The position numbers and the translations under genes are program-made. A DNA stretch of 64,000 nt from positions 18,994-82,993 of the IMG/VR virus record IMGVR_UViG_3300032303_000488; one strand, given 5' to 3'. Below are positions 2,598 to 59,803 of the stretch, piece by piece. The notes under the pieces are model-generated. The model had not been told where the DNA came from and ran no database searches. It saw only the letters and a list, made by a program, of their open reading frames with translations. This stretch comes from a virus (lineage: Duplodnaviria > Caudoviricetes). Every line of letters starts with the position of its first letter. The first letter of the stretch is position 1.

Positions 2598-4394
2598 CTA
2601 CATTATATTTATGTTGAACTGTTTAAAGTATGCATCTAAATCTTTTTGCTCTGGTTTATTGCGTTGAATGATATTACGCTTGTCAAACTCATGCATTTCT
2701 TCCGTTGGTTTTCTGTCACGAAATGTATGTATTTCTACCATCTGATTCATGTCTTTTACAGTGTGAGAGATAGCACCAAAGATAGCACCGCATACAGCAT
2801 CTGCAAGGTCCTTAGAGGACTTTCTAGGGTGGTCTACACGATTACCCCTCATAATTTTTAATTCTGTTAATTCTTCAAACAGCAACTCTATGGCTGGCAT
2901 AGCAAGTCTTTCTTCGTAAACAAGCATAGCCATATCTTCATAGTGTTTCTTGGCAACAGATACAGTCTCAGTCTTTATACCAACAGACTTTAATTCATTT
3001 TGAATATCAAACGATTGCCAACGGTCAAACGATACCATACCCAAATCAAATCCAAGTCTCCTCAAGTTCTGAATCCATTGCTTTACCTCTGAAAGGTTAA
3101 CAGGACCTTCAACTTTTGGTTCCCAATATACTACTGCATCTACCACTACGATAGGCATTACTTGGGCATAATCTTTAACTACCTGCACATTTACCCATTT
3201 TTCAACGTGAGCAATAGCCACAGCACATTTGTCGTGGCGTTGTGCAAGGTCAGCATGGACAAAGTATTTTTTATCTGGGTCTGGTTTAAATGATTCCATA
3301 AAACTTTTATTAGAATCAATGGGGTTTACAATTGTCATACAAGCACGAACTTTTTCCTGTTGCTTAAAGAAAGCGTCAGAGGCGTAGGTGGGGACACAAG
3401 CAAAACGCATCATGGCATCTCCCAGGTCTGTATAGAACGCTAATTTAAAGTCATCAATTTTACGAGTAGGATTTACCACCCATGTAGGTCTTTTAATAGC
3501 AAACATTCCTGGAAATTTATAAGACAAAATATTATCTTCTTCCCATTCAATATCTAGGCTATTTCCATCTGCATCTTCTGGCAAATCTGCATTCATAATA
3601 AACTTATGTTTCTTTATTACCACTTCTTTTTCGGCAATAACTGAGTCATACCTTTGGCTAATAAAGTCCCCAGGATAGCGTGGAAAAGAAAGTAGTGCTA
3701 CTTTGCCTAAGTCTGGAAAACGACTGTCTACGGAGGCACGGAAGGCTTTATAGATGTTGTCTGCGGTTTTTCCTTGGTCATTTCCAGTTCCAACTTCATT
3801 AGCAAAACCAGAAATTTCATCCAGCACTGCCAGAATAAGGTTTAGACCTTCGTGAGACTCTCGTTCTGAGTGTCCAGAATAAACAGTAATAGCATTATTA
3901 AACTCAATGCTATCTACTTTTGCATAATATTTACCAGCGAACCAAGGTGAACGCTCAATTTTGTTTTTGAAGCCCTTAAAAAAAACGTTCTTAGCCTGTT
4001 GTGCGTTAACAGCAATGTTGATAATATCAATAGCGTCTCCAGTAGGTTTGCCAAAATAACGAGCAGGGTCTTTAAGACAAAGTAATTTATAAACAATATA
4101 GGAACAAGCGACAGTAGAAACAAAATCCTTACCAGAACCTTTTCCAAGTTGTAGGATTACTTCATTCTTTGTATATTTTTTGTAGTATCTACGACCTTCT
4201 TCTTCACCAAGTAGTTCTATAACCTCTTCTAGTCTATAAATTTGTGACATTGCTTCAACAATGTCATACTGAATTTGAGATAGTGGTGGCTGTTGCAAAT
4301 AGTCTTCACCTTCAACAAATGTTTTAACATCTACTGGTATCTCTGCAAAAACGTTGCTCTTTAGTACCTCAAGAAAATCATTGAACATTGACAA
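2598..4394 (-). CDS. terL: Terminase large subunit
   Basis: Walker A QLGKGSGKD, Walker B LAVLDE, nuclease motifs HADLA, FDRWQS, KDLADA. Confidence 0.92.
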   Translation of the reverse strand: MSMFNDFLEVLKSNVFAEIPVDVKTFVEGEDYLQQPPLSQIQYDIVEAMSQIYRLEEVIELLGEEEGRRYYKKYTKNEVILQLGKGSGKDFVSTVACSYIVYKLLCLKDPARYFGKPTGDAIDIINIAVNAQQAKNVFFKGFKNKIERSPWFAGKYYAKVDSIEFNNAITVYSGHSERESHEGLNLILAVLDEISGFANEVGTGNDQGKTADNIYKAFRASVDSRFPDLGKVALLSFPRYPGDFISQRYDSVIAEKEVVIKKHKFIMNADLPEDADGNSLDIEWEEDNILSYKFPGMFAIKRPTWVVNPTRKIDDFKLAFYTDLGDAMMRFACVPTYASDAFFKQQEKVRACMTIVNPIDSNKSFMESFKPDPDKKYFVHADLAQRHDKCAVAIAHVEKWVNVQVVKDYAQVMPIVVVDAVVYWEPKVEGPVNLSEVKQWIQNLRRLGFDLGMVSFDRWQSFDIQNELKSVGIKTETVSVAKKHYEDMAMLVYEERLAMPAIELLFEELTELKIMRGNRVDHPRKSSKDLADAVCGAIFGAISHTVKDMNQMVEIHTFRDRKPTEEMHEFDKRNIIQRNKPEQKDLDAYFKQFNINIM

Positions 4395-18990: not shown

Positions 18991-18999
18991 AATAATCTC

Positions 19000-24050: not shown

Positions 24051-24631
24051 ATGTCAAAGTTAGTACCCCCACGTTTTTGAACACTCCAAGTAAAATCTGT
24101 AATATACATTTCTAAAACTTCTTGATATTGAGCCAAATGCGTATAAGCAGCATCATTTCTGCCAAACTCATTAAACTTATCGTACGCTAAGAAAACATAA
24201 AAAGTTCCATAATGTTTTTCATACCAATCCAACAGTTCAACACCGCCAGCACCCCCATCTACCGTGTTTTTATCTACAAGGCTGGTTGGAAGACCTGTTG
24301 TTGTATCTATATTTGGGTCAGCACTGAATGACCTTGATGGCAACATATCCCAAGATACTGACAATGTTCTTTTGTCTGCAATCCAGTAAGAACGCATACG
24401 ACCATTAACCATACGTTGACGATTTTCAATTCTTTGTACTCCAAAATCAAGGGAACTTCTGCTGTGGTCTGACAAAACTATAAAACTACCAGTGTCATTT
24501 AAAGAATTATTAATTTCATATCCAGAAGGAACATATGAGCCACCAGATAGTTCTCCTGCGTCCTCGGAAAAAAGAATAGCCTGTGGTCTAGCATACTGCT
24601 TTCTAGCATTCATGTATGTTGAATTGGTCAT
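24017..24631 (-). CDS. Distal tail (Dit-like) protein
   Basis: Directly after the TMP; beta-rich, 204 aa. Confidence 0.6.
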   Translation of the reverse strand: MTNSTYMNARKQYARPQAILFSEDAGELSGGSYVPSGYEINNSLNDTGSFIVLSDHSRSSLDFGVQRIENRQRMVNGRMRSYWIADKRTLSVSWDMLPSRSFSADPNIDTTTGLPTSLVDKNTVDGGAGGVELLDWYEKHYGTFYVFLAYDKFNEFGRNDAAYTHLAQYQEVLEMYITDFTWSVQKRGGTNFDMWNISMTLEEA

Positions 24632-27600
24632 CCGTTCAATCCTCTTATTCTTCCATTGTCAATCTGTCTAATCTTAGTCATTACCGCATTTGCTATCTGG
24701 TCTGGGTTTGAATTAGAACTTACATTGACGTTTATTTCATATGTGTTACTATTATACACTGAATCTCCTGCTACCGCTGATACTCCGCCCACAAGTCCAC
24801 CATCTGCATATCCATTAATCTTGTTAAGAGTTCCTGAACCAATTCTATCCACCGCTGACTTCTTAATAACAAATTCTCCTGGAGTAAGCATAGCAGGAAC
24901 TGTATCTGTTCCCATAGCAAATCCACCATTTGCATATCCACCTTGGGCAAGGTATGAAGGAACCATTCCTCCACGAGAAAATCCTCCAAAGAATTTACCA
25001 TTAAGAACCATTCCACCATTAGCATATTGTGTAGGAGCAGGTTCTGGATTAGGCATAACAAATCCACCAGTGGCATATCTATTTGGGAAGAGTCTACCAA
25101 AAAGATTTTTCATAGGTGCTTTAGAATCTTTAGAAGGAAGCACCGAATCAATAAACTGTTTACCAGGATTTACTGTAATGCCTATTCCCTTAATACCCAA
25201 CGAATCAAGTAACGCTTTCAATGCAGCCTTTCGTTCTGCCAAATCTGCTGCAATTTTTTCTACAGCCTGTGGTCCAAATCTATCAGTAGGATTTAGCATA
25301 ATGGATTCTATATCTTTTACAGTAAATCCTCCAGGAAGATGTGCCTCAATATATGGGAAACTTGCTGGAGTCTTGATACCAGGAATTTCTTTACGCATAA
25401 TATTTTGAGTAGATTCAAGAAGTCCGTGCATTGTTGGGTATGTTGAGAATATTGATGATAATTTTTGCACACCTGGATTTCTTTGTCCTAGTCTGAGTGC
25501 TTGGTCCCAAATTGAAAGACTATCTCCCATAGAAACTGTTGCCTTACCCAAAGTGCTAGGCTTTAGTTTTATGGTGTTGTCTCCATATCTCTGAACGTAT
25601 CTACTAAACGGATTTACAAGTTGATTAAAATTATTGATTGCCTGTTGAGAAGGAGTTTGCTTACCACGATTCCAAATAGAACCTTCGGTCATAAGCATGT
25701 CTTCTTTTGTTGTCAGGAATCCGTATGCTGGTGTTTGCTTTGAAGTAGCATTTGCAGGAATACCCATCATGTTTTGTTCAACTGCTATTCTGTTCATTAG
25801 ACTATCTGAGGTAGAACTTCTAATACCAGGAACTCTCATGTTGCCATAGAAGTTATCCTTAAGCATGTTGTGCAGTGCGTCATTGGAAAGATTAAACCCT
25901 AATGTTGGTGTAAGTTTTTTAACCTTGCTGGCAATTCCCTGTGTTCCACTAACCATACCAACACCTGATTCATAGAATTTATCCGCCCAAGTTCCCAAAG
26001 CCGCCAAAGCATTTTTACCACCACGAATACCCAAACCTGTTTTAAGAAAATTACCTACTACTCCCAAACCTTTTCCAGCAAATTTTGCTAAAGAACCACC
26101 AAAGGCTCCAAGTGGTGCAAGAAGTGCATTTAGAATACCTCCGCCAACATCACCTTGACCAAAAGCGGTAGCAGAATCTCCTGCAAGCATTCCAGCACCA
26201 ATACCTGGAGTAAAATATGCGGCAGTTCTTCCAAATTCCATAAGACCAGAGTCATCGTGTGCCAAAGCCCATCGTTGTCTTCTTACTACAGGGTCTTCTA
26301 TTTTTAGCCATTCACCATTATTCCAAGGCTCGTCAAAGAAACTTGATGGATGCCATTTGCCATAAGCATCTAAACCTCCAGGGTCTCTAGGCTTAGGCTT
26401 AGGTTTACCACCATCTTTGTATCCAACCAAACCACCATTGGCAAATTTTTGCATTGGATTTTTTGATGCATTTTGAAGTCTATAGAATAAGTCTCTCAAA
26501 CCACCAGTCATACCAGATTGCATATCTCCAGTTTTTGCTGTCAGATTCATAAATTTTGCTAGTTCTGGATTATTTTTAATCATATCCTGAATAAGAGGAT
26601 TTGTTTTAGCATTAATTGCAGCAATATTGATAGGGTCTAATCCACTCTTTTTTAAATCAAAACCTAACATGTTTGCTATTTTATTTATTTGTGGTGTAAG
26701 ACTCTTTTTATGTGTTAGACTATCTGTAAATTTAGATGATTGGAATCCTCCAAAAAAATATGCATCTTTAAAATCTGCTGCACTTATTTCAGAAAGTCCA
26801 TTCTTTTTAAGAATGTCATTTGTTTGACGTAAATTAAATCCTGAAGATTTCATGGCTTCTACAATGCTTGATGTTCTTTGTGCAAGTTCTTTAGTAAATA
26901 GATAGTCTACAGAATCTTGTCCTTCTGCAGTTAATGATGTAATTCCTAAATCAATATTTTCAAATCTTTTTGTTTTTTTATTAAACAAAATATTCATTCC
27001 ATGAGTATCACTATTACCTAAAAGTGCATTTGTTGGTAATGCTTCATCAATATATTTTCTTAACGCTTTAGCAAGGGTGTTAGCACCCTCAACTTTATTT
27101 GGTGCATCATTAATATATTTTCTTAACCATCCTTGTGAAGAAGGAATTAGGTCTGGAATAATCTTACTTCCAACAGTTGTTCTATTAAGCATTTGAAGTT
27201 TTGGTCCACCCAAACCTAATTTAGCCCAAATAGTTGAACCAATGAATTCTCCTGTTGTTTCAACAGTAGTGTCTGGTCTTTTTACATAATACTTTTCTCC
27301 ATTAATTATTCTATATGCACCAGGGGTTGCTCCTTCTGCCTCATTCAACAAATGTGTTGGAGTTATCTTTAAACCTTTTTTGGGTGTCTTTAATACTAGA
27401 GGGAATCCAAATGCTTGTGCTGCTTTTTTACCTACTCCCTTTACCGCCCCAGGCACAGCAGCAAAAGCATAATCTATTGGGTCTGTTGGGTCAAATATAA
27501 AATCTTTATAGAATTGACTTGTATTCTTTGCACCAGTCTTAATTGTTTTTGCAGCGGTATTATTTAGATAAGCACTAGGATTTCCACCACCAGCATAAGT

Positions 27601-30600
27601 ACCATTAATTAATCCTTGAAGCCAACCCATAGGGTCCAAGAATGGGTTAGGTGCACCTGTATCTCTTTTTACCATTCCTCCAGGAGCATATCCGACCATG
27701 CCACCATTGGCAAAAAGTTTAGTCATGTTTCCAAGTAGACCACCCATTCCATTTCCACCATACATGTGATTTTCTATTAGAGAAATTGGTGCTCCCCCTC
27801 CAGTATATAGTGGTTTCTTTTTCTTAGGGAATATTCTAGGAATACCAGATTTAGGTGGGAATGGCTCTTTACTTCCTGGAATCCAAATTCTAGAATTTCT
27901 GTATAGTCTACGTTCCTTACCAGTTTCTGGGTCAATGTTTGACTTAAGAATTCTTGACCACCAAGAACCAACTTCCATTCCGCCAGGAAGTGTGCTTTCT
28001 GCTGTAGACCAATAACTTTCTCCGTGACTTACAACCCACCTACCCTTTTCATCCCATTGTGGTGCAGGGCGTGGACCAATATATCCACCATCTGCATAGC
28101 CATTGTAGCCACCATTTTTAAAGTGACGAACCATACCTCCATCTGCATATTTTGGAGTATTTGGAGATAATGTTGGATGTAAATTTACAACATTAGGATT
28201 AGTATAATATGAATTCCAGGCTTTTTCCTGAGCCTTATCAGTAAACATTGATTTCTTTGTAAGTAAATTTGTATTTAGTCCAAGTGTTTTAAATCCTTCT
28301 GCTACTTTGTCTGGTCCCCAAAGTCTAGACATAGCACTTGCTAAGATTTTTGCTTCTGCTTTATCTAATCCATTATAATTTCCATACATCTTATTAGCAA
28401 TAAGATTATTTCTTGCAGACAAATCTTTTCTACCAGGAATAAATCCAGTCCAATAATTATCTTGTGCAATTTTATCAATATATGGGACACCTAATCTTCT
28501 AGATTCAATCAAGGCTTTGTAATATTTTATTGTTCCAGCAACCGAAGTAAAAGACGCACTTTCATTTGTTCCATCTTTAAAGTCAACCAATGACCTTTGT
28601 CCCTTAACGTGGCTAGGTCCTCTTCCATTATACCAACCCTTGTTTGCGTCACCAAGATTATATCCAAACAATGATTTTTCAAAGAAATTGTGTGAGTAAT
28701 TATACCATCTTGGGTCATCTGCTCTGGTTATTGGTTTTGCTAAATCATCTAACGTATATGGCTTGGGCTTAGGCTTCTTTTTAAACTTATCCACCATACC
28801 GCCAGCGGCAAACCCTAGCCTATCTGCTTGGTTTAATTTATCGAGGGTATTTACACCAATAGTCTTTACAGCATTTGCTCTAATAACATATTCTCCATTA
28901 GAAAGCATTGCTGGAATACTGTCGCTTGTTCCGCTACCTGGACCTGTAATGTGACCGCCAATTGCTGCTTTAGGAACTAGTTTTCCATCTACAACATCAT
29001 AGCCTGGAAGATATTTCAGTTGTGCTTTTTGTTTATTTGCTATAAATTGTAAAGGATTGTTCCAAAATTCTGAATTAAAAATATCACCTATACCACCCAA
29101 TTGTTGCATAGTAATATTAAATCCAGCATCCAGATAACCATTAAAATCTTTTTTATTTAATCCTTTTTCAACAACTGGTGCTGTTCCTGCTTGAACTGGT
29201 GTATTAGTTGTAAGTTGAGATGTTAGGTCAGCAATGCTTGCAGATAAATCATTAACAGAATTTGACAATCCTGCTTGACTATCTTGTAATGGTTTTATTT
29301 CTGCTTTTCTAGCATCGTCTAAACCTGTTTTTTGATTATCCAAAGAAGCCTGAATATCATTGTTTTGAATGTTTATTGCTGCCGTAGCCGCAGCAGCAAT
29401 ATCTCCTCTATTTAATGCTTCTGCAAGCGTTAGTTGTCCTTGTTGAGATTTTGCAATTTGTTCATTTAATGTTTTTAATTTTTCAATTTGAGAAATACGT
29501 TTATCATATCTATCATTAATTTTACCTTCAAGTGCTTGAATATCTTCTGTTTGGTTTTGAATTCCTGTAAGTTGTTTCTTTTTTTCATTTATTTTACTAT
29601 TAATTATGTCTTGTTTTTTAATTGCATTGTTAATATTTTTTTCTTGTTGTATTCTTTGCTTATCTCCACCGAATTCTAGGGTATTTAGAATATCCTGAGT
29701 TAATGTAACGCCTTTAAGCATTGCTTCTCCAACCAGTTCTTGTTCTGCCAAAGTTAAGTTTTTTATGGCTTCTGCAGCCTTTGCTGCTTCTGGACCTAAA
29801 CTTGCAAGAGCAGCGTTAAAAAATTCTATTCCTGTTGCATTTGGCATTTTATTTGTAATAGCAATTAATTGTTCATACTCGATATTAAATGTTTTTGTAC
29901 TAATTGTTCCAGTTTGCAATTGTCCAGACAATCCACTAAGGTATGAACCAAAAGTTGCTGCATTTGCTTTTAGTTGTTCTAGATTCTGTTGGTCACGGAA
30001 TACTGGTGTGTCTAAGAATCCCTCTCCCTTGCCAGTTATCTGGTCAGCAATAGTACTTCCATTATTTGACCAGTAACCTCCAAATTCTTTTGTAAAGTTT
30101 TTTGCTGCTTGCTGTGCATTTTGCTTTAATGCTGCCTGACCCTTTGGGTCATTTAGAGAGAATATGTTTTCTGAAATGCTTATCTTTTCTTTTCCTGCTT
30201 CATTCTTAATGGCATCAATAATTGCTTTAACCTGTTCTTTTTCCATACCCTGACCATATAGGTCAACGGCAAGAGCCTTCAAAGCATTTGTAACTTCAAC
30301 ATCAGATAGGCTCTTTAGTTTTTCAGCCTGTGGTTTATACACTTCTTTAAACTGGTCACTGGCTTGGAATTGTTTTGCAATAGATGCTTGTGCTTGTGTC
30401 TGGTCGCTACCAGTTATTTGCATTGCACGAACACCAGTAAGTTTAATATCTGTTCCAAAGAAATCATTTATTTTTGTCAATTTATCTTGAGTAATTTTTA
30501 AAGTTTCTGTAACTGCTGAATATGCATCTGCATTTTTCTTAATAAGTGGAAGAATAATTTTATCGAATGCTTCGTATGCTGTAATTGCTAAACCTACATA

Positions 30601-33600
30601 TGGAATCAATTTACCAAATAAAGGAATAAGTCTTCCAACAACAGGACCAAGATTTTTAAACATTCCAAGAACACCAGTAACCATAGATGCCATACCAGCA
30701 ATTTGTCCTGCTTCTCCTGGAAGAACCATGGAAGCCATACCAAGACCCATAGATGTTCCAAACATTCTTCCTTGAAATTTTCCTGGGTCCATCTTTGAAA
30801 CATTTACTCCAGCACTAGTAAAGAAATTGTTATATTTAGTTGACATTTTACCAAGACGTGATTTTTGGAATTTTGTTGCTGGGTTGGGACCATACATTGT
30901 TCCAGTCATAGGTGTTTCAGTTTTTGGATAATATGACTGAGTTACAGGGTCATAACCCATATCTGCAATTACTCTTCTATTTGTGTTATTTGGAATAAGT
31001 ATATTCTGTGACTGTGAACCTGCTGGGGTAATAAAAGCACCCTCACTTATTACACGTCTTGCTCCTGTTGCTACTGCACGACCAACTTGTTCTCCAGCAT
31101 TTTCTGCCTGAGAAACACTAGCATCAATTCCCTTGATAGCACCCTTACCAATATTTTGTCCAGACTCTTCTGCAATTTTTGATGGAGATGCTTGCTTAGT
31201 AGCATCTTTTACTCCCTGAACAATTGACTCTTCAGTTTGTGTTTTTATTTGAACACCAACTGATTTTAATGCTGTTTTTGCAGAATTTGAAAGATTTGGA
31301 TTTGCGGCAAGTGCTTCCATGCTTTGATATTTAGGTTCATTAAAATGTCCTAATTGGAAGTCTTTTCCAGATTGTCCAGTCATTCTTTCATATAGTGTTT
31401 TTGCACCTCCACCTAAAGATAAGTATCCACGAACACCAGTGCTACCCAAAGAGTATATTGATTTTCTTGCTCTTTCTAAGAACTTTCCTCCTGCACGTCT
31501 TGGCATAGTTGGCATGCTTCCATAAAAATCTTCTGATAATCCTAAAGTTCTTGATAATGCAAGTTTTTCTGCATCTGTTGTAGCCAATTGTAATGCTTCT
31601 TTTTCTACAAATTTTGCAGCAGATATTCTAGCAAGACGCATTCTTTCTTCTGTATTTTGAATATTTGCAAATGTTGTTTCAAATTCTGAATTTATTTTAT
31701 TTGTAAATACTTTAAAAATATTTTCATATTTAGCATAGATTGGGTCAAATAACCCCTTAGCAACTGATGCTTGACTTGGTTTAATTCCCATTGACTCACC
31801 TATACGGAGTGCACCAAAACTTAATATTTGTGCAGGGTCTCTAATTAGACTTGCATTTTTAGACATGTTTTCTCTTGCATCTTGAAGTCTTAGTCCATAT
31901 TCTGCATATGTTGGAACCTCTCCTGGCTTACCCTGTCTGAATCCAGGAATATTTCCAGATACTAATTGATTTATAAAATGTGGATTTCTTGCTACTACCG
32001 AAGCAGGAATAATGGCTTCACCATTAGATACCTTGGCTAAAATAGAATCACTAGTACCTGTTCCAGGACCAGAAATAATACCACCAGTGGCATATTTTCT
32101 AATAGGTCCTCTAGGTGTGATTGGAACATTAAAACCTCTCTGTGCGGCTACAGAACGCTCATAGGCTGCTGTTAGCATGTCTACTGCTGCCGCTTCGGAT
32201 GTAAATGTTTGCTTTAGTTTAGAGTGAACTTGGTCAAGAGATGATGCGATAGCAGCAGCATTAATTTGTTCCTGAGTCATATAGTTTACTTGTTCACCAA
32301 GACTTAGAGATGATTTACCAGTTTTATTAAAGATATCTTTAACAAGGGCAAAACCCTTAATTACGTTTGCCACAGCATTAGCAATAAGACCAAATGACAT
32401 AAGTAGAACTGGACCAACAATACCAGCAACAGCAACAAACTTAACTATAAATCCTTTAACTCCTTCGCCAAGACCATTAAAGTTTTTTAATACTTCTGAA
32501 CCAAAATTAATTAATGGCGTGATAGCCTTCATAAATTGTTCACCAACAGGTGCTAATTGTGCTTGAAAATCAGCAATAGCCTTTTGAAACTTATATAGCG
32601 GTGATTCTGAAATTTTGTTTAATTCTTTTTGTGATAGCATGGCTAGTTCAAGGCTACTTTGTCCTGCTAACCTTAATACCTCGGATGCTTGGCTACCTTG
32701 AGCAATAACGTTTTTAAACAATGTGGACATACGAGCAAATTGAAATTTACCAAATAGTTGTTCAATTGCTCTTGCTCTATTTAATGGGTCTAGAGTATCT
32801 AATGCTTGAGCAAAATCTACTACTGTTTTCTTTAGGTCACCTTTATCTTTTTCAACAATTCCCTTGATGTTAATACCAAATCCAGAAAGCATTTTGCTTG
32901 CAGTATTAGTAGGATTAATTAAAGATGCTAAACCAGATTTCAGTGCGTTGGCACCTTCTGACGCATTAATACCACCTTCTTTCATTGCTGTTAGGAAGAA
33001 AGCAAGGTCTTTGACATCTCCACCTAGTTGTTGAATAACAGGAGCAGCCTTTGGAATGGCTGTTGTCATATCATCAATATTAAGAACTGTTTGGTTTTCA
33101 ACAGCGTTCAGGAAGTTAATGTTTTTTGCAAGGTCTTTACTAGAGATATTGAAAGCATTAGTTAAAGATATAGTTGTTTGCAAAGCCTTCTGTTGGTCTA
33201 CCCCACCAAGAACTGAAAGTTTTGTAGCACTGTTTACTTGAGCAAGTAGGTCTGCACCTTTTTTACCAGTTGCGGCTGCTGATGCAGCCATATCCATACT
33301 ATCTTTTACTGCTACACCATACTTAGTGTATTCTAAAGCAAGTTGCTTTATTTGCTCAACCATCTTATTTGTTTCAGCAGTGGTTGTTCCTAAATCTCCA
33401 TATACACGCTTAAGTTTAATAGAGGCTTCTTCAATTTGCTGATAGGCTTTCATTGCAGCCCCACCCATAATTGAAAGTGGGATAGTGAAACCAACCATCA
33501 ACTGGCGACCAGCCCATTGGGTATTCTTACCAAAGTTCAATAGGTTTGTTGAACCTTGTTTTAAAAGTTGATTTAATAACTGTTGACGTTGTGCGGCTAT

Positions 33601-34080
33601 CTGTGTTTTTGTTCCAAGATTTTGCATATCAAGTGCAAGTGGTCTAACCTTGATTGCTTGCATTGCACCATTAGCATCACGACCAAGTTTAATATATTGT
33701 GATTGTAGGTCTTTTACTCTTTCACGAGCAACCTTGTTAATGGTTTCAAATTCAGATTTAAATAATTTACTAAATGTTTTAGATGCTCCACCAGCATATC
33801 TAAAATACTCACCCATTGTGAGTTTGTTCTTTTCGAGGGAGTGGGTGAATTGTTCGGCAGTAGTTCTAACCTTAACCATACTTGCACTAAATGCACCAGT
33901 AGAGTTAATTGAGTTTATAAGATTTTGTTGTAAGTTCCTGGAGTCAGCAGCGGACGCTGCCCCCATCTTTGCCATTTGTGTATGGAAGGCTGAGATTTGA
34001 TTTTGAAGTAATCTGATACTGTCCATTGCGGAAGCAGTATCAATATTAATTCTAATATTGGATTGGATATCATCAGCCAT
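24628..34080 (-). CDS. Tape measure protein (3150 aa) with C-terminal cargo cassettes
   Basis: TMP core motifs (TQWAGRQLMVGFT, LTDLAFF-like segment, GANALKSGLASL); follows the tail chaperones; repeated GPGTGTSDSIPAMLSNGE motifs; kinase, LysM and DUF3626-like segments. Confidence 0.93.
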   Translation of the reverse strand: MADDIQSNIRINIDTASAMDSIRLLQNQISAFHTQMAKMGAASAADSRNLQQNLINSINSTGAFSASMVKVRTTAEQFTHSLEKNKLTMGEYFRYAGGASKTFSKLFKSEFETINKVARERVKDLQSQYIKLGRDANGAMQAIKVRPLALDMQNLGTKTQIAAQRQQLLNQLLKQGSTNLLNFGKNTQWAGRQLMVGFTIPLSIMGGAAMKAYQQIEEASIKLKRVYGDLGTTTAETNKMVEQIKQLALEYTKYGVAVKDSMDMAASAAATGKKGADLLAQVNSATKLSVLGGVDQQKALQTTISLTNAFNISSKDLAKNINFLNAVENQTVLNIDDMTTAIPKAAPVIQQLGGDVKDLAFFLTAMKEGGINASEGANALKSGLASLINPTNTASKMLSGFGINIKGIVEKDKGDLKKTVVDFAQALDTLDPLNRARAIEQLFGKFQFARMSTLFKNVIAQGSQASEVLRLAGQSSLELAMLSQKELNKISESPLYKFQKAIADFQAQLAPVGEQFMKAITPLINFGSEVLKNFNGLGEGVKGFIVKFVAVAGIVGPVLLMSFGLIANAVANVIKGFALVKDIFNKTGKSSLSLGEQVNYMTQEQINAAAIASSLDQVHSKLKQTFTSEAAAVDMLTAAYERSVAAQRGFNVPITPRGPIRKYATGGIISGPGTGTSDSILAKVSNGEAIIPASVVARNPHFINQLVSGNIPGFRQGKPGEVPTYAEYGLRLQDARENMSKNASLIRDPAQILSFGALRIGESMGIKPSQASVAKGLFDPIYAKYENIFKVFTNKINSEFETTFANIQNTEERMRLARISAAKFVEKEALQLATTDAEKLALSRTLGLSEDFYGSMPTMPRRAGGKFLERARKSIYSLGSTGVRGYLSLGGGAKTLYERMTGQSGKDFQLGHFNEPKYQSMEALAANPNLSNSAKTALKSVGVQIKTQTEESIVQGVKDATKQASPSKIAEESGQNIGKGAIKGIDASVSQAENAGEQVGRAVATGARRVISEGAFITPAGSQSQNILIPNNTNRRVIADMGYDPVTQSYYPKTETPMTGTMYGPNPATKFQKSRLGKMSTKYNNFFTSAGVNVSKMDPGKFQGRMFGTSMGLGMASMVLPGEAGQIAGMASMVTGVLGMFKNLGPVVGRLIPLFGKLIPYVGLAITAYEAFDKIILPLIKKNADAYSAVTETLKITQDKLTKINDFFGTDIKLTGVRAMQITGSDQTQAQASIAKQFQASDQFKEVYKPQAEKLKSLSDVEVTNALKALAVDLYGQGMEKEQVKAIIDAIKNEAGKEKISISENIFSLNDPKGQAALKQNAQQAAKNFTKEFGGYWSNNGSTIADQITGKGEGFLDTPVFRDQQNLEQLKANAATFGSYLSGLSGQLQTGTISTKTFNIEYEQLIAITNKMPNATGIEFFNAALASLGPEAAKAAEAIKNLTLAEQELVGEAMLKGVTLTQDILNTLEFGGDKQRIQQEKNINNAIKKQDIINSKINEKKKQLTGIQNQTEDIQALEGKINDRYDKRISQIEKLKTLNEQIAKSQQGQLTLAEALNRGDIAAAATAAINIQNNDIQASLDNQKTGLDDARKAEIKPLQDSQAGLSNSVNDLSASIADLTSQLTTNTPVQAGTAPVVEKGLNKKDFNGYLDAGFNITMQQLGGIGDIFNSEFWNNPLQFIANKQKAQLKYLPGYDVVDGKLVPKAAIGGHITGPGSGTSDSIPAMLSNGEYVIRANAVKTIGVNTLDKLNQADRLGFAAGGMVDKFKKKPKPKPYTLDDLAKPITRADDPRWYNYSHNFFEKSLFGYNLGDANKGWYNGRGPSHVKGQRSLVDFKDGTNESASFTSVAGTIKYYKALIESRRLGVPYIDKIAQDNYWTGFIPGRKDLSARNNLIANKMYGNYNGLDKAEAKILASAMSRLWGPDKVAEGFKTLGLNTNLLTKKSMFTDKAQEKAWNSYYTNPNVVNLHPTLSPNTPKYADGGMVRHFKNGGYNGYADGGYIGPRPAPQWDEKGRWVVSHGESYWSTAESTLPGGMEVGSWWSRILKSNIDPETGKERRLYRNSRIWIPGSKEPFPPKSGIPRIFPKKKKPLYTGGGAPISLIENHMYGGNGMGGLLGNMTKLFANGGMVGYAPGGMVKRDTGAPNPFLDPMGWLQGLINGTYAGGGNPSAYLNNTAAKTIKTGAKNTSQFYKDFIFDPTDPIDYAFAAVPGAVKGVGKKAAQAFGFPLVLKTPKKGLKITPTHLLNEAEGATPGAYRIINGEKYYVKRPDTTVETTGEFIGSTIWAKLGLGGPKLQMLNRTTVGSKIIPDLIPSSQGWLRKYINDAPNKVEGANTLAKALRKYIDEALPTNALLGNSDTHGMNILFNKKTKRFENIDLGITSLTAEGQDSVDYLFTKELAQRTSSIVEAMKSSGFNLRQTNDILKKNGLSEISAADFKDAYFFGGFQSSKFTDSLTHKKSLTPQINKIANMLGFDLKKSGLDPINIAAINAKTNPLIQDMIKNNPELAKFMNLTAKTGDMQSGMTGGLRDLFYRLQNASKNPMQKFANGGLVGYKDGGKPKPKPRDPGGLDAYGKWHPSSFFDEPWNNGEWLKIEDPVVRRQRWALAHDDSGLMEFGRTAAYFTPGIGAGMLAGDSATAFGQGDVGGGILNALLAPLGAFGGSLAKFAGKGLGVVGNFLKTGLGIRGGKNALAALGTWADKFYESGVGMVSGTQGIASKVKKLTPTLGFNLSNDALHNMLKDNFYGNMRVPGIRSSTSDSLMNRIAVEQNMMGIPANATSKQTPAYGFLTTKEDMLMTEGSIWNRGKQTPSQQAINNFNQLVNPFSRYVQRYGDNTIKLKPSTLGKATVSMGDSLSIWDQALRLGQRNPGVQKLSSIFSTYPTMHGLLESTQNIMRKEIPGIKTPASFPYIEAHLPGGFTVKDIESIMLNPTDRFGPQAVEKIAADLAERKAALKALLDSLGIKGIGITVNPGKQFIDSVLPSKDSKAPMKNLFGRLFPNRYATGGFVMPNPEPAPTQYANGGMVLNGKFFGGFSRGGMVPSYLAQGGYANGGFAMGTDTVPAMLTPGEFVIKKSAVDRIGSGTLNKINGYADGGLVGGVSAVAGDSVYNSNTYEINVNVSSNSNPDQIANAVMTKIRQIDNGRIRGLNG

Positions 34081-34107: not shown

Positions 34108-34425
34108 TTAGATGAGACCACCGAGGGCGGAATCTCCTAATTTAATGCCAGATGCTTCTTCCACAATTTTGTAGACAGTCGGTAAGTCTAGAAGGTCTTC
34201 TAGTGCCTTAAGGTCTGTTGCAATTTCTGGCTTATACTGCTTAAGAGCGATTTGTACACACTCCATTAGCAAGTTCATTGACTTGTCATTGTCATCAGCA
34301 ACTTTTGAGATTTCATCAAACTTTTTCATAAAATCACGAAGAAGAGAAATCTTTAATGGTCTGATGTCAACAGTTGTTCCATCAATAAGAGTAATTGTCT
34401 TCTCTTCATTAATAGTTGTTGTCAT
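34108..34425 (-). CDS. Tail assembly chaperone, short (G-like)
   Basis: Directly upstream of the TMP; paralogous to the N-terminus of 34465..35187. Confidence 0.75.
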   Translation of the reverse strand: MTTTINEEKTITLIDGTTVDIRPLKISLLRDFMKKFDEISKVADDNDKSMNLLMECVQIALKQYKPEIATDLKALEDLLDLPTVYKIVEEASGIKLGDSALGGLI

Positions 34426-34464: not shown

Positions 34465-35187
34465 TTAAGCAATGTCGTTTACAACTTCGTAACCTAATCC
34501 GTGACCAATTCCAAATCCTGCTTGCTGGGCTTTGACTCCTTGTAGGGCTGTAATATCATTTGGATTTCCACTACCGATACCGCTTGCTTTTGCGGCTACC
34601 CTTGCTTTCATGGCTTCCCAGGGGTCCTCTTCTTGCTTGCCACTTGCTTCATCTAAATCAATTCCTTTAAGAGATGCGGTAAATTTTTTATCCTGATACT
34701 CCATCTCTCTTTTTTGCTCAAGGATTGACATTAATTCTGCCAAACATATAGAAGATTCTAGTTCATCATAGTTCTTCCAAATACCTAAAAGAAAAGCCTC
34801 AGATTCTAATTTATTTAAATCTAAATCATCCCATCCAGACTTAGAAGATGACTCTTCATTTACTTGTTTTTGTTCTTCTTGAACTTCATCTGATTCTTCG
34901 CTATCCATCTTAATTCCACCAGCATACTCCACAATTTTGTACATAGTTTTTAAATCAAATGTGTCTTCAAATTTATCTATAGTATCAATTTCTGGATAAA
35001 ACTGTTTCATTGACACAGTGGCGGCTTTTGTAAGAATTTCAACAATTTCATGCTCATCTTTTGCATTTTTTACTAAATTGAATTCTTCCATAAATTGTCT
35101 CATATACTTTATTTTAAGTGGAGATATCTCTATCTGTTTTCCATAGATTGTATAAACATGATTCATATCATATATTTTTGTAGGCAT
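34465..35187 (-). CDS. Tail assembly chaperone, long (GT-like)
   Basis: Between major tail and TMP; G-like N-domain plus a C-terminal extension. Confidence 0.7.
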   Translation of the reverse strand: MPTKIYDMNHVYTIYGKQIEISPLKIKYMRQFMEEFNLVKNAKDEHEIVEILTKAATVSMKQFYPEIDTIDKFEDTFDLKTMYKIVEYAGGIKMDSEESDEVQEEQKQVNEESSSKSGWDDLDLNKLESEAFLLGIWKNYDELESSICLAELMSILEQKREMEYQDKKFTASLKGIDLDEASGKQEEDPWEAMKARVAAKASGIGSGNPNDITALQGVKAQQAGFGIGHGLGYEVVNDIA

Positions 35188-43843: not shown

Positions 43844-46800
43844 TTATGCAATGTCAAGTGTAATTGTGTTCTTTTGTATGTCCATATAGCCAATATATTT
43901 ATATCCATTAAATTCTATGTTTTTGATATTTGAAGAAGTGTCTACTAATATCTTGTTTGTGCCAGTGTATGTTTTAAAAATTTCTTTCATTCCATTATCG
44001 TAAACCTTATAATACTCCGAAAGGCTGCTAGATTTCCAAGTTGTTAATGCATTCCAAAGACCATTATCTACATCGTTCCAGTTAACAATTGTGATTTTTT
44101 GAGAACTATTTTCAGAGTCAAGTCCATAAAATGAAATATTGTCTAACAAAATATTTGATGTTATTTTAATTTTGCTAAGTGACTCTGAAACATCTATTGG
44201 ATTTAAGAAAGATAGACCTAAAAAGTTCCATTCATCTAACTCTATAACTGGGCTTGCAACAATTTTACCGTTTAAGTAATATATTGGAATATTTGTAGTA
44301 GAATTCGTGTATATGTAGCCTTTAGTGTTTGAGGCATTTATTGACTTTAAATAAAATGAGATTGTTTCATTTTTAGAAGTTATTTCAAATACTTTGACGG
44401 CTGTTGTTGGAAATTCTTTAATGTCTGCTAATAAAGACATCTGTATAGAATTAATTTTGATGTTTAAGGATGGGTTTCCTATTTCAAAAAATATACCCCT
44501 GTCTTGTGCCGAATCGTAATTTCCACAAAATCTTATTCCAGAATGCCTTGTTAGGTATAAATAGGGTGTGCTTTGCTTATAAACTAAATATGGGTTTTTA
44601 CTTTTATAGTTGTATTTTCCACCAGAATAAATGTATGGATATAAGTCTACAGAATACTTTGTTCCAATTGGATTATATTTTGTTCCTTCTGGATTTTGTT
44701 CTGTTGCAACAGTTGGAGCATAATCTAAAGTTTTTGCAGCAATCTGAAAATGCCTAATCTCGTATGGTTTTAGGTTAACTGCTTTATCGTTTAATTCTAT
44801 GTGGAATACAATTGCCCACTTGTCCCAATCTAGCCCTGTATTTGCTAGTGTTGGTGGGTAAACAATCATACCATTTACAAATTCATATTTAGATGCCTCA
44901 TCTGGCGTATTGGCATCAATTAATCTATTTTCATTTGCTAGAATTGTTGATGCAAATTCTGAAATATTTTTTATTGCACCATTAGACAATCTTTGAAATG
45001 TAAGATATGTTTTTAATTCTGAATTTGATGTGTCAAAATTACCAGAACTATAGGTTCTTGTTTCTGGATAGTCTACGTTTATTTGAATAAAATCTAATTC
45101 TTCAATTGGTACATCGCTGGCATTATTGATAGTTCTTGTTAATTTATTTAATGGAATATAGTCTTGCCAGTATGAGTTTGTTGCAATATCAAGAATAGTT
45201 TTTTCATATTCTTTTATTGCAACTATTGTGTAGGTTGCTGTTCTTGGTAATAATGTAGAATATGAAGAACCAAGAGTCAGAATTCCAGAGGTAAATAGGC
45301 TTGAGATATCTGCAAAATTTCTAGATGAACATAGCCCAACCTTATAGATATTTCCAGTAAAAGTATTTGATGTTAAGTTATCTCCACCAACATAAACATT
45401 AAGACTATTTACATCACTCAGGAATGAGGCAACATCAGTGTTTGCTGTCACTAATGACTTTATATCTATACCTACAGCAAACTTTACATTGTGAGTAATT
45501 GACTTTGTTGTTATGGTTGATTCGGTTCCATTGTATTTTATTTTGTATGAAACAGTTGTGTTTACTAGAGATACCCTAAGATAATCGCTTGTAGATTCAT
45601 TTAGTATTTCAAAAAGAATTTGTTCAGTACCGCTGCCTGTCAAAGACTTGAATACTCCGTATATGCCACTTGCCAAATGCTCATTTTTATTAAAAGAAGA
45701 TGAGTAAAGATATCCTTGATTTGTTGACCAATTCCTGGATGAGCCAGTAACAGTTGGTCTTAGATTTATAAAAACATCTGAATCTCCAGAAGCAACATTT
45801 GTTAGGTATAGGTCTTTAAGCCATAGCGATGATGTATACAGGGATGTTGTTACTTCTGGAACAGCGTAAGACCTTGTAGAAAGAGTTTGAGTAGGACTTA
45901 CGTCAAAGTTATCAATTATTGAAGCCTGTTCCCACTTTGCTTGAAAACTTGGGTAGTTGTAGTTGTTTATATAATTTGCAAAACCAAAATCAGCAAGAAT
46001 TGCATTTCCACCATATTTAATATTTATATCGAGTGGAACATCTACCGCTTGGGCGTAAGCCAATCTCATTTTAGATAATACGCTCGAACATTTGTATGGA
46101 TAGATTGCAATTGAATCTACTTCTACAAACTTAACATCAGAGTATGCAAAAATACCAATCCAGTCCTGACTTTTTGAAGAACCATCTAATTTTGCTGGAA
46201 GTGTTAGTGTTGATGTTTGTATTGGTAAAGAAATTACATCATCGCCATCTACCGCTAATACCGCATAATTTTCTGCAATTTTAAATTGTAAAAGCATTGG
46301 TCTATACAGTTCTGACAAATAAAATGATTGTATATCTTCACCAATTTTTAAACTTATAAATTCTTTAGTTACATAGACCCCATCTGTTGATGCTAATGGT
46401 CCAATAATTCTTTTAGGAGTTGAGTTATTGGCATTTATCCGTATCATCATTTCAAGAGTTAGTTCTTTATACCGTCCGTTTTCATTTAATAATCCAAACC
46501 CAGGGAATATAAAAGATGGTTGATTTTCGGTTGCGTTTGCATAAAATATTGCAGAGTTTCCAGAACCATATGATAGAGACATACCAGCATTTTTACCATA
46601 AAGATTACTTCCAGTGCCAATATAGTAAGCACTATACTCTTGAGTTCCATAAGATTTTGACTCTATTCCAAATGTTTGTGTAGTAGCAATTGTGGCTGGT
46701 ATTGAAATGAGTGTTTGTCCAAAAGATTCTCCATTAAATGGTTCTGAATTTTTTCCAATAGTTAATCCATTTATATAATATTTTGGGGATACAGATGAAT

Positions 46801-47269
46801 ATACAAATTCAATTTTTAAATTTTTGCTTGTTGCTTGATTTGAAAATGTAAAAGAAACTGGAATCCAAGTTAGTGTTGGATATTTAGTTCCATATATAAT
46901 TTTTTCTTGAGAAGTTATTCCAGTATGTCCAACTTTAACTGTAACGTCAGTTATTGTTTGAATATAAAAACTTACAGTAAATCCACCAGCATCCGAAGTA
47001 AAAGTTGTACCTGAAACTAAGGTGGTTGTTCCAGCACTTCCTCCACCAGTAATTTCCGTAACATAACTTGAAGGAAATGGTGATGTCTCTGGCTTATGTA
47101 TTCCACTTGTAATAGTTTGTGTTGTTCCATTTGTTTTTGTCCAAGTATCTAAGGTTCTAAATGGTTCTGAAATTAAAGAAACATAGTCAGACGTGTCATC
47201 CAATGACCATACCGCTAAAGGATGTTCGCTTAGGATTTTATCTGCATACAGATTCGTTGTGATAGGCAT
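43844..47269 (-). CDS. Large virion protein with LamG/concanavalin-like and carbohydrate-binding-like domains
   Basis: LSEHPLAVWSLDD N-terminus; beta-rich; probable leaderless start. Confidence 0.55.
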   Translation of the reverse strand: MPITTNLYADKILSEHPLAVWSLDDTSDYVSLISEPFRTLDTWTKTNGTTQTITSGIHKPETSPFPSSYVTEITGGGSAGTTTLVSGTTFTSDAGGFTVSFYIQTITDVTVKVGHTGITSQEKIIYGTKYPTLTWIPVSFTFSNQATSKNLKIEFVYSSVSPKYYINGLTIGKNSEPFNGESFGQTLISIPATIATTQTFGIESKSYGTQEYSAYYIGTGSNLYGKNAGMSLSYGSGNSAIFYANATENQPSFIFPGFGLLNENGRYKELTLEMMIRINANNSTPKRIIGPLASTDGVYVTKEFISLKIGEDIQSFYLSELYRPMLLQFKIAENYAVLAVDGDDVISLPIQTSTLTLPAKLDGSSKSQDWIGIFAYSDVKFVEVDSIAIYPYKCSSVLSKMRLAYAQAVDVPLDINIKYGGNAILADFGFANYINNYNYPSFQAKWEQASIIDNFDVSPTQTLSTRSYAVPEVTTSLYTSSLWLKDLYLTNVASGDSDVFINLRPTVTGSSRNWSTNQGYLYSSSFNKNEHLASGIYGVFKSLTGSGTEQILFEILNESTSDYLRVSLVNTTVSYKIKYNGTESTITTKSITHNVKFAVGIDIKSLVTANTDVASFLSDVNSLNVYVGGDNLTSNTFTGNIYKVGLCSSRNFADISSLFTSGILTLGSSYSTLLPRTATYTIVAIKEYEKTILDIATNSYWQDYIPLNKLTRTINNASDVPIEELDFIQINVDYPETRTYSSGNFDTSNSELKTYLTFQRLSNGAIKNISEFASTILANENRLIDANTPDEASKYEFVNGMIVYPPTLANTGLDWDKWAIVFHIELNDKAVNLKPYEIRHFQIAAKTLDYAPTVATEQNPEGTKYNPIGTKYSVDLYPYIYSGGKYNYKSKNPYLVYKQSTPYLYLTRHSGIRFCGNYDSAQDRGIFFEIGNPSLNIKINSIQMSLLADIKEFPTTAVKVFEITSKNETISFYLKSINASNTKGYIYTNSTTNIPIYYLNGKIVASPVIELDEWNFLGLSFLNPIDVSESLSKIKITSNILLDNISFYGLDSENSSQKITIVNWNDVDNGLWNALTTWKSSSLSEYYKVYDNGMKEIFKTYTGTNKILVDTSSNIKNIEFNGYKYIGYMDIQKNTITLDIA

Positions 47270-53384: not shown

Positions 53385-54416
53385 CTAATCATTAAATAAT
53401 TTCATTTTATGTGAAATTATTGACCTAACGTTAATTTCTTTTTTATCAATTTCATAGGTTTTAGACCATTTCCACAGTTTCATGTTATGTTTTGATGACA
53501 TCATAATGTTAAATGGCAGGGCACCCCAAGCAGAGATATCTCTAAATATGCTATTTGTTTTTATAATAATATTATTTGTTTTTTTAGAAAAATAGTAGGA
53601 TAAAAACCATTTTTCTTTTTTATAGTAATGAATTGCCAAACTGTTGTATGTTTCTCTTGTTGGATATTTGATTATTGATTTGATAAAATAAAAAATCTTA
53701 AATTTTCCAGTTAGCCCCAAAATTCTATAAGCAAGAGCCACGTCAATCTTTCCAACATCTTTTAATTTTATTAAAGATTTGGCAACTTTTCTTGCTTCTT
53801 CTATTCTGTTAAATTGCAATAATTGATGACATTGATAAATATGATACCTTGCATTTTTATATTCATTATAAGCATCCTCAATCATTTGATTATATTGTTC
53901 ACGAGATTTATCTATATCTGGATGATGAGATACTTCTAGACCTTCACAAAACTCTTGTCTAACTTCTGTTCTGTCTGGAACAACTGCTTCATGCATTAAA
54001 TATATCCATCTAAAACCATGGCGTTTATGAATTCTATTATTTATAAATGTGTCATCTGGATGAGTTTCATCTTCATCTTTAAAAGTTATGTTAAATTTAT
54101 AACTTACTTGTTCCGATGTCATTGTTTCAAGTTTTTCACGCCAGCCTTCGGATAGTGTTTCGTCCATGTCCATAGACACACAGTAGTCAATATCATCGGG
54201 CAGCAATGCAAGTGCGGCATTTCTTGCGTCATCAAATCTCCAGGGCTTTACAGAAATATCTATAACTTTAATTCCAAGTTTTTTAGCAATACGTTTCGTT
54301 TTATCTGTTGAACCTGTATCTGCAATTAATAAATAATCTGCATCTTTAGCAGATTCATACCAACGCTCTACAAATTTTTCTTCATTTAGAGCAATCGTGT
54401 ATACCGCAATTTTCAT
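53385..54416 (-). CDS. GT2 family glycosyltransferase with helical C-terminus
   Basis: AVYTIALNEE, DTGSTD, FDDARN, DMDE, HEAV. Confidence 0.88.
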   Translation of the reverse strand: MKIAVYTIALNEEKFVERWYESAKDADYLLIADTGSTDKTKRIAKKLGIKVIDISVKPWRFDDARNAALALLPDDIDYCVSMDMDETLSEGWREKLETMTSEQVSYKFNITFKDEDETHPDDTFINNRIHKRHGFRWIYLMHEAVVPDRTEVRQEFCEGLEVSHHPDIDKSREQYNQMIEDAYNEYKNARYHIYQCHQLLQFNRIEEARKVAKSLIKLKDVGKIDVALAYRILGLTGKFKIFYFIKSIIKYPTRETYNSLAIHYYKKEKWFLSYYFSKKTNNIIIKTNSIFRDISAWGALPFNIMMSSKHNMKLWKWSKTYEIDKKEINVRSIISHKMKLFND

Positions 54417-59600: not shown

Positions 59601-59803
59601 CCAGTAACTGTACTTGCAGCACCTGTTGGTCCTGTTGGACCTATTGCCCCAGTAGAACCAGTTGGTCCAGTAGAACCTGTTGGTCCTGTGTTTCCAGATG
59701 GTCCACCGAAACCAACAACTTCTATGTTTTTAGAATTATTTGTTGAGGTTATTTTTAAGTTTATATTTTGAGTGGTATCGGGAATAATTTTAAATGTAGT
59801 CAC
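56621..59803 (-). CDS. Collagen-like (Gly-Pro-Thr) fibre protein, 1060 aa
   Basis: Long (G-X-Y)n runs dominated by GPT, interrupted by globular domains. Confidence 0.92.
58128..58235. repeat. 4 x 27-bp tandem repeat in the collagen gene
   Basis: ggaccctgtaaacctgttggtcctgtt unit; last copy has one substitution. Confidence 0.9.

Follow-up and report, generated by a model that had tools for sequence, protein, structure and literature searches.

Tape measure proteins (TMPs) are usually viewed as rulers and channel formers, and the extra modules known within them cut peptidoglycan outside the cell. Here we describe a predicted kinase domain that is carried as a cassette inside the 3150-amino-acid (aa) TMP of an uncultured phage. 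The TMP is encoded on a 64,000-nucleotide stretch of viral DNA (the window) that belongs to an 82,993-bp IMG/VR record estimated to be 82% complete, with a GC content of about 37% (IMGVR_UViG_3300032303_000488, positions 18,994 to 82,993).

Several described systems resemble this locus in part. The Rpf-like motif of mycobacteriophage TM4 and the peptidase of T5 pb2 (cited in PMC13277306 and PMC3853054) are extra modules within a TMP that are ejected along with it and act on the host at entry, as we propose for the kinase cassette; however, they act ATP-free on peptidoglycan outside the membrane, whereas a kinase implies access to the cytoplasm. Polyvalent proteins, which are predicted to enter with phage or plasmid DNA, carry protein-modifying enzymes that include kinases (Iyer et al. 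2017, PMC5512222), and, as in the window TMP, they are large, multidomain, DNA-co-delivered proteins with cassette-like recombination. Their kinases belong to a Ser/Thr/Tyr-type clade that lacks the C-terminal subdomain and is found mainly in (pro)phages of Verrucomicrobia-Chlamydia and Bacteroidetes (PMC5512222), whereas in the window the TMP itself serves as carrier, of a kinase that is PI3K/PIKK-like; the words "tape measure" do not occur in that paper. In actinobacterial contractile injection systems (CIS), the effectors Tme and Sle1 combine a TMP-like coiled-coil carrier with a variable, exchangeable C-terminal functional domain (PMC11126660, PMC13277306), and for the globular C-terminal domains of such cargo, adaptation to the lumen and refolding once ejected have been proposed (PMC13277306). 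Actinobacterial hosts and exchangeable domains are thus common to both, but Tme and Sle1 are cellular cargo with single domains, whereas the window TMP is that of an infectious phage and carries arrays of cassettes. No kinase domain is reported among the CIS TMP-like effectors, and the word "kinase" occurs 0 times in PMC13277306. Nor did the literature that we searched in full text contain a report of a kinase inside a TMP. Gp0.7 of T7 is an early gene product made after entry and not a virion component. It phosphorylates translation factors of the host and ranks as the classical kinase of a phage (cited in PMC5512222).

Kinase-fold domain in the tape measure protein

The carrier of the domain is a genuine TMP. 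Its open reading frame (ORF) is very long, PF10145 (PhageMin_Tail) matches it at aa 247-444 (Pfam, E 8e-26), and many PHROG tape measure families match its N-terminal ~700 aa with E values down to 2e-99. The gene lies between chaperone-like ORFs, two related ones that match phrog_10504, and genes for distal tail proteins; a major-tail/Ig-domain protein is also encoded upstream, and the downstream neighbours are a 204-aa ORF and a minor tail protein of 1456 aa. This order fits a siphovirus tail module. A Kyte-Doolittle scan (window 19, mean >= 1.5) passes a sole segment of the TMP, at aa 537-580. The main parts of the protein and of its kinase-like domain are as follows.

24628-34080, minus strand: TMP ORF (P0002), 3150 aa, a single uninterrupted frame
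32749-33342, minus strand: PhageMin_Tail core (TMP aa 247-444), part of the ~717-aa N-terminal region conserved in relatives
32341-32472, minus strand: hydrophobic membrane-type segment of the TMP, aa 537-580, from the Kyte-Doolittle scan
26659-27336, minus strand: kinase-fold core, aa 2249-2474 (residues 50-275 of P0003, the window copy of the domain, TMP aa 2200-2480), from the AlphaFold2 model and the PDB fold searches
27280-27333, minus strand: Gly-rich loop G-x-T-P-G-(G/A) through beta3 Y-Y-V-K (G2250, G2254, Y2265, K2267), from invariant columns and model strands
27321-27277, minus strand: GAYRIINGEKYYVKR, which holds the beta3 Lys
27247-27249, minus strand: alphaC glutamate E2278, the invariant E79 in model helix 73-88
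27249-27247, minus strand: the Glu of GEF in TTGEFIGSTIWAKLGLGGP, the alphaC Glu
26992-27018, minus strand: catalytic loop G-N-S-D-T-H-G-M-N, aa 2355-2363 (D2358, H2360, N2363), with invariant G156, N157, D159, H161 and N164
27024-26983, minus strand: LLGNSDTHGMNILF, the catalytic loop string
26944-26952, minus strand: metal-binding D-L-G, the DFG equivalent, aa 2377-2379, with invariant D178 and G180
26961-26944, minus strand: ENIDLG, which holds the D-L-G

A preliminary description of this DNA had proposed a HipA/PI3K-like kinase embedded in the TMP. Translation of 26480-27660 on the minus strand reproduces all of the motif strings that it quoted, in the one 3150-aa frame, and the range that it gave (TMP aa ~2240-2400) is correct, the key residues being K2267, E2278, D2358, H2360, N2363 and D2377; in the same frame, DFIFDPTDPIDYAFAAVPGAVKGVGKKAA is located upstream of the kinase motif strings. 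D-L-G starts 14 residues past N2363. The pattern D-x-H-x-x-N followed by D-[LFYM]-G 8-20 residues on occurs once in the TMP and was found in 15 of 20,000 composition-preserving shuffles, a figure that falls to 4 of 20,000 once K and E upstream of it are demanded as well.

We aligned 13 copies of the domain (alignment A1), which are between 75% and 23% identical to the window copy. Across them, 16 columns are invariant (G51, G55, Y66, K68, E79, S106, P150, N152, G156, N157, D159, H161, N164, D178, G180 and F275 in P0003 numbering), and 11 of them fall, in kinase order, in the Gly-rich loop, the beta3 Lys, the alphaC Glu, the catalytic loop and D-x-G. The catalytic residues by which the protein kinase-like (PKL) superfamily is recognized, K68, E79, D159, N164 and D178, are thereby all invariant; mean column identity is 41%, and the positions around the catalytic residues vary freely. 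Judged by dN/dS, which was 0.24-0.46 in six pairs of domain copies, the domain is under purifying selection, and the eight copies translated for that test contain no stop codons.

An exhaustive phmmer search against 1.84 billion representatives returned only 12 proteins, one of them a false positive (P0021, a leucine-rich-repeat protein with 12 chance matches over the catalytic-loop region), which was excluded. A word-indexed search among long proteins found 12 homologues, overlapping partly with the phmmer set, and word-indexed searches with single-sequence and profile queries found no stand-alone relatives (139-504 aa). Apart from the false positive and one 367-aa ORF on a 1.2-kb contig, the homologues are 869-4233 aa long, and the TMP core domain is present in every complete homologue scanned. 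On the evidence of these searches, the domain is a small, previously unnamed family seen only in giant TMPs of uncultured phages.

AlphaFold2 applied to A1 produced a model with pLDDT 73.8 and pTM 0.75 (84-98 in the C-lobe core) that shows the bilobal PKL fold, with a predicted beta-rich N-lobe that includes alphaC and a helical C-lobe with the loops. In the Gly-rich/beta3 region, which holds the invariant G51, G55, Y66 and K68, the model has strands at 55-60 and 63-68; K68 closes the second of these, E79 lies within helix 73-88, D159-N164 come after the long helix 130-154, and D178 follows strands 165-168 and 173-176. The motifs therefore sit on the expected secondary-structure elements of the model.

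Foldseek returned 302 PDB matches at E <= 1e-3, the best being PI3KC2a, Tel1, p110alpha, VPS34 and PI4KB (E 2e-5 to 2e-4), and re-ranking of the top 1000 put PRPK (10.3), IRAK4 (10.2) and Rio1 (10.1) forward. In three PDB fold searches, every top match listed was a kinase, a pseudokinase or a kinase-fold enzyme; WaaP and the pseudokinases IRAK3, MLKL and the TYK2 pseudokinase domain are among the matches. Since the fold searches and the re-ranking agree on kinases, the kinase-fold assignment is solid for the predicted model. Against BFVD, the best viral matches include phage multidomain ADP-ribosyltransferase, portal/head-morphogenesis and "PI3K/PI4K catalytic domain" proteins, and kinase-fold cargo in virion proteins is thus not unprecedented.

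The affinities of the domain within the kinases point mainly, though through sub-threshold matches, to the PI3K/PIKK branch. In a permissive Pfam scan (E <= 10), PF00454 (PI3_PI4_kinase) was matched by 6 of the 13 A1 members, with each match falling on the stretch from the catalytic loop to DFG (positions 143-170 of the 241 in the profile), and by 4 of 10 members rescanned singly (E 4e-4 to 8e-3). HipA_2 (PF20613) was matched by three members, in the N-lobe only, over the Gly-rich/beta3 region (profile positions 20-62), with a best match below threshold (E 0.017, 14.8 bits versus a cut-off of 27), and HipA_C (PF07804) by none. LepB_N had a sub-threshold match to one member and also appeared as an ESM Atlas row, where scores of 0.85-0.88 are below the trusted level and served as a lead only. 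When the A1 family profile was searched against PDB, Tel1, ATM, TOR2, mTOR and Mec1 were matched at marginal E values of 0.03-1. The Tel1 match is a 30-residue alignment without gaps that spans both active-site loops, in which the family consensus a-l-l-G-N-i-D-t-H-s-e-N-i-l-f ... n-i-D-l-G aligns to H-V-L-G-L-G-D-R-H-G-H-N-I-L-L ... H-I-D-L-G. The BoNT/X light chain and the designed helical repeats that head the PDB profile lists were set aside as chance or composition.

Like the domain, the PI3K/PI4K/PIKK group (PF00454) has G-x-D-x-H-x-x-N-I-L followed by I-D-L-G 14 residues on, and the D-x-H-x-x-N and D-L-G of the domain keep that spacing, although the Arg of D-R-H is not conserved. Members of that group measure ~350 aa or more, versus about 225 aa here, and their FAT/helical accessory is absent: Pfam finds no helical PIK/FAT domain in the TMP, and the ~110 residues upstream form a low-confidence linker/adapter. 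HipA and HipA_2 share with the domain the G-N-x-D-x-H-x-x-N loop type and, likewise, the logic of a conflict-system kinase, but the N-terminal domain and the antitoxin partner of HipA are absent from the TMP cassette. HipA_N and couple_hipA have no Pfam match in the TMP, and no gene for a small regulator of the HipB antitoxin type adjoins the domain, which is internal to a structural protein. HipA structures appear neither among the PDB profile matches at E <= 10 nor among the fold matches listed. In E. coli HipA the N-to-D spacing is 18 residues, versus 14 in the TMP domain. RIO and Bud32-PRPK kinases show no sequence similarity to the domain and differ from its D-x-H-x-x-N in catalytic-loop type. 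Based on the sub-threshold PF00454, HipA_2 and LepB_N matches and the Tel1 alignment, we assign the domain, at the level of sequence, to a divergent, compact (~225 aa) kinase type with PI3K/PIKK-type active-site loops and some HipA-like N-lobe character, outside formal membership of every curated family. This assignment defines a new compact PI3K/PIKK-like kinase family. Conservation, the model with its matches to kinase-fold structures, and PF10145 thus bear out the proposal of a kinase-fold domain with PI3K/PIKK/HipA-type motifs, in the order described, inside a true TMP. Formal membership of HipA_C or PI3_PI4_kinase is not supported, since no Pfam match reaches the gathering score (best, 20.9 versus 27.1 bits).

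Cassette architecture and mobility

Comparison of the whole TMP with 15 relatives revealed an N-terminal ~717 aa conserved at 56-93% identity, a conserved C-terminal ~130 aa and a variable middle, in which the kinase-like domain lies within a block bounded by two linkers of the form (Y/F)AxGG(L/M)V.

26407-27672, minus strand: mobile kinase cassette, linker to linker, aa 2137-2558 (~420 aa), which relocates as a block
27670-27714, minus strand: upstream linker FANGGMVGYAPGGMV, aa 2123-2137, from a motif scan
26407-26445, minus strand: downstream linker FANGGLVGYKDGG, aa 2546-2558, from a motif scan
27412-27513, minus strand: conserved junction/adapter FYKDFIFDPTDPIDYAFAAVPG...KKAAQA, aa 2190-2223, from the comparison with relatives

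Linkers of the form (Y/F)(A/K)xGG(L/I/M)V occur ~220 aa before and ~190 aa after the catalytic loop in 10 close relatives, and in the window the linker DNA forms an imperfect direct repeat (D3; 26408-26439, the reference copy, and 27677-27708, with 69% identity). The position of the kinase ranges from aa 43 to aa 3629 across the TMPs. The cassette at aa 2137-2558 matches aa 3075-3500 of P0007, behind the cassette that trails the kinase in the window TMP, so that the kinase and the next cassette stand in swapped order there, as they do in P0008; the kinase block directly follows the N-terminal region in P0012 and P0013 and lies near the C-terminus in P0017 and P0022.

The junction segment, which has low pLDDT in the AlphaFold2 model, precedes the kinase in nine relatives and a different cargo in P0014. 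The latter protein is 72-93% identical to the window TMP up to aa 2233 (81% over aa 2191-2227) and keeps FYKDFIFDPT.P.DYAFAAVPG...KKAAQA, after which comes another cargo of ~200 aa that ends in the same linker type. This alternative cargo (aa ~2515-2700) recurs in P0006 (aa 2970-3168), which also has the kinase, and has no Pfam match at E <= 0.5. Read by eye only, it contains an R...S-x-S...Q-x-E-like series that resembles ADP-ribosyltransferases. A further homologue, P0016, carries an HAD subfamily IIIB acid phosphatase domain (PF03767, E 5e-17) at aa 372-537, immediately upstream of the kinase, and enzymatic cargo is therefore not unique to the window TMP.

Alternative cargos at one junction, together with the recurrence of the kinase at other positions and in other carriers, are what is expected of polymorphic-toxin or polyvalent-protein cargo, and, as far as sequence comparison can tell, the cassette follows that recombination pattern. 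The segment upstream of the kinase had been described as pre-toxin-like. Its role as a shared junction holds, because cargo-type recombination is seen there and the segment is kept in P0014, but the name finds no counterpart in a Pfam PT-domain match: neither a PT-* pre-toxin nor a MuF carrier domain was found in the TMP (Pfam, E <= 1), and no immunity-like gene was identified. A family of true phage TMPs is thus seen to act as recombination-driven multi-cassette carriers, and the logic of polyvalent proteins and polymorphic toxins, along with that of the recently described CIS TMP-like effectors, extends to an infectious virus and its tape measure.

TMP length varies from 3150 to 4233 aa among relatives that share ~83% identity over the N-terminal 717 aa. 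Either this clade spans a one-third difference in tail length or length is not measured by the cassette region, and the spread sits oddly with a strict ruler function for that region.

The last large cassette of the window TMP follows the kinase.

25081-26373, minus strand: last large cassette, TMP aa 2570-3000, 55-73% identical in three relatives, with 42 invariant columns

This cassette matches nothing in Pfam, and AlphaFold2 on 5 sequences gave an unusable model (pLDDT 46); a DUF3626/ART identity considered for it was accordingly not confirmed.

Proposed delivery with the virion and alternative readings

The viral record encodes a portal, a prohead protease, a major head protein, a DNA polymerase, a ribonucleotide reductase and collagen-like fibres. 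It also encodes a WhiB-family protein (G000:C1:16510-16683; E 9e-13, above the cut-off), whose gene precedes the first base of the window and so lies outside it. The presence of WhiB points to an actinobacterial host. Freshwater actinophages have been assigned with whiB as the marker (PMC6802176), so that a low-GC freshwater actinobacterium is the probable host, with "freshwater" resting on analogy with that study; the related viral records are 14-32% complete fragments, in which a search for WhiB is uninformative. A Peptidase_M23 gene (G000:C1:18148-18444, E 1.5e-18) lies in the same viral record, likewise outside the window, and a search of the record for Amidase_2 found none.

We propose that the TMP cassette is a pre-made kinase that is delivered with the virion and acts at the onset of infection, a reading that we consider reasonably probable. 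In siphophages the TMP fills the lumen of the tail tube, and its C-terminal part, located at the tail tip, is expelled first. As a portion of the TMP, the cassette would be packed into the virion in an extended, non-native conformation within the tail tube; as the TMP is ejected through the actinobacterial envelope, the cassette would leave the tail ahead of the DNA and then refold, and the refolded kinase would draw on the ATP of the host to phosphorylate one of its components right at the outset of infection. The substrate would most likely be Ser/Thr of a protein; host translation or defence proteins, which the preliminary description had suggested as targets, are conjectural. Since a kinase needs ATP, conservation of the active site speaks for arrival of the cassette on the cytoplasmic side of the membrane. 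A TMP that holds an ATP-dependent enzyme whose active site is intact makes sense only if part of the TMP enters the cytoplasm, a question on siphophage DNA entry that now becomes directly testable. If active, the enzyme would be a pre-made tool of counter-defence or of host takeover in freshwater Actinobacteria, which are abundant, uncultured and heavily dependent on Ser/Thr phosphorylation.

A number of observations count against this proposal. Three folded copies of ~25 kDa each exceed the lumen of the tail tube, so that unfolding and refolding must be assumed; retention of the cassette in the mature virion, as opposed to its being cleaved off, is putative, as is its crossing of the membrane, outside which there is no ATP. 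All of the ~20 family members come from metagenomes, no relative was found among 50,697 GenBank phage records by blastn and tblastn (two divergent members included, at E <= 1), and a pattern scan of 185,579 species found no cellular homologue, although this last absence is weak evidence because the pattern was narrow. The N-lobe of the model is less confident (pLDDT 61-84), and only 13 sequences stand behind the model. The window copy itself has no match in Pfam, PHROG or PDB sequence searches; the best PF00454 match in the family (E 3.8e-4) stays below the gathering cut-off, and the PDB profile matches have marginal E values, at least 0.03, with the chance match to the BoNT/X light chain scoring equally. 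Where PI3K has the Arg of its D-R-H triad, the domain has T, S, A or I, and the segment after D-L-G is short and without the basic residues of lipid-kinase activation loops.

The last of these observations also bears on an alternative that we consider unlikely, in which the cassette is an active phosphotransferase, delivered in the same way, with a non-protein substrate such as a membrane lipid (e.g., actinobacterial phosphatidylinositol), a small molecule or a cell-wall precursor. The closest sequence signatures, those to PI3_PI4_kinase (6 of 13 members) and LepB_N (1 of 13), are to lipid-kinase families, and class I, II and III PI3Ks and PI4KB are the best Foldseek matches; however, the loops are equally near to those of the PIKK protein kinases Tel1, ATM and mTOR, and a ranking on structure only prefers the protein kinases RIO, IRAK and PRPK. 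A lipid kinase would, moreover, be expected to have the basic activation loop and the helical (PIK) accessory domain that are absent here. The PKL fold does take in many small-molecule kinases, with WaaP among the fold matches, and the membrane-type segment of the TMP would place the domain beside the membrane. Phosphatidylinositol is made by few bacteria, actinobacteria among them, but its synthesis by the host would have to be assumed. More specifically, the cassette might be a phosphoinositide-type lipid kinase that, after membrane insertion of the TMP, phosphorylates, at the site of entry, phosphatidylinositol or a lipid related to it and thereby locally remodels the membrane. We regard this version as decidedly doubtful, but if it is true, the modification might open or stabilize a DNA conduit or mark the entry site, the cassette would be a bacterial-virus counterpart of the manipulation of phosphoinositides by Legionella effectors and eukaryotic viruses, and it would prove that about 1000 C-terminal residues of the TMP reach the cytoplasmic face of the membrane.

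Delivery itself would not be needed if the kinase worked late, in the producing cell, with the TMP as a polyprotein or scaffold whose cassette folds in the cytoplasm, targets host or phage proteins, possibly the TMP itself, and is then cleaved at the GG linkers or left outside the tail lumen; this we judge quite unlikely. The TMP is synthesized in an ATP-rich cytoplasm, its folded globular domains are too large for the tail tube, and the spread in TMP length (3150 to 4233 aa) is hard to square with every residue measuring the tail. The TMPs lambda gpH and T5 pb2 undergo proteolytic processing, and the repeated linkers could serve as processing sites, but the Pfam scan of the TMP found neither a protease domain nor a known cleavage motif. 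Further, all relatives keep a conserved C-terminal end of ~130 aa beyond the cassettes, which argues that the cassettes stay between the two functional ends of one polypeptide. Cassette swapping of the polymorphic-toxin type is typical of delivered effectors, and there is no evident need to fuse a late cytoplasmic enzyme to a TMP.

That the domain is without phosphotransfer activity, as a pseudokinase or as a purely structural or binding module (for example, a nucleotide-binding plug or a host-protein-binding domain), is improbable. Its catalytic activity is predicted only, kinase-fold proteins are often pseudokinases, IRAK3, MLKL and the TYK2 pseudokinase domain are among the fold matches, and the missing Arg of D-R-H would agree with such a role. 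Pseudokinases typically lose one or more of the catalytic residues, however, whereas here K68, E79, D159, N164, D178 and the Gly-rich loop are invariant at 23-75% identity. Finally, although the window sequence lacks a Pfam, PHROG or PDB sequence match and the apparent homologue P0021 proved to be a false positive, a chance resemblance of motifs in a low-complexity structural protein that holds no kinase domain is extremely improbable and effectively refuted by the invariance of the motifs over 13 homologues, the fold matches to hundreds of kinases and little else among the matches listed, and the rarity of the pattern in shuffles.

Other features of the TMP region and the window

A repeated motif, G-P-G-(T/S)-G-T-S-D-S-I-x-A-x-(V/L)-S-N-G-E-x-(I/V)-I, has three copies in the window TMP.

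about 31920-32100, minus strand: first copy, aa ~660-720
about 28785-28980, minus strand: second copy, aa ~1700-1765
about 24790-24975, minus strand: third copy, aa ~3035-3097

The third copy is a looser variant (around aa 3055-3090). These copies are what many of the PHROG TMP families match, and they also match one another across relatives.

Of the two chaperone-like ORFs, the one just upstream of the TMP (34108-34425, minus strand; 105 aa) matches phrog_10504. The other (34465-35187, minus strand; 240 aa) matches the same family over its first 100 aa, and this long form also matches phrog_10474. The pair looks like the short and long forms of a tail chaperone, encoded here by two separate genes and not by a frameshift.

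Between the portal and ribonucleotide reductase genes lies a 1141-aa ORF (43844-47269, minus strand), for which PHROG gave no match at E <= 1e-5. Two paralogous beta-1,4-glycosyltransferase-like genes (53385-54416 and 55342-56391, minus strand) match phrog_13126 with E values of 4e-66 and 7e-112, and the pair adjoins the gene for a collagen-like tail fibre at 56621-59803.

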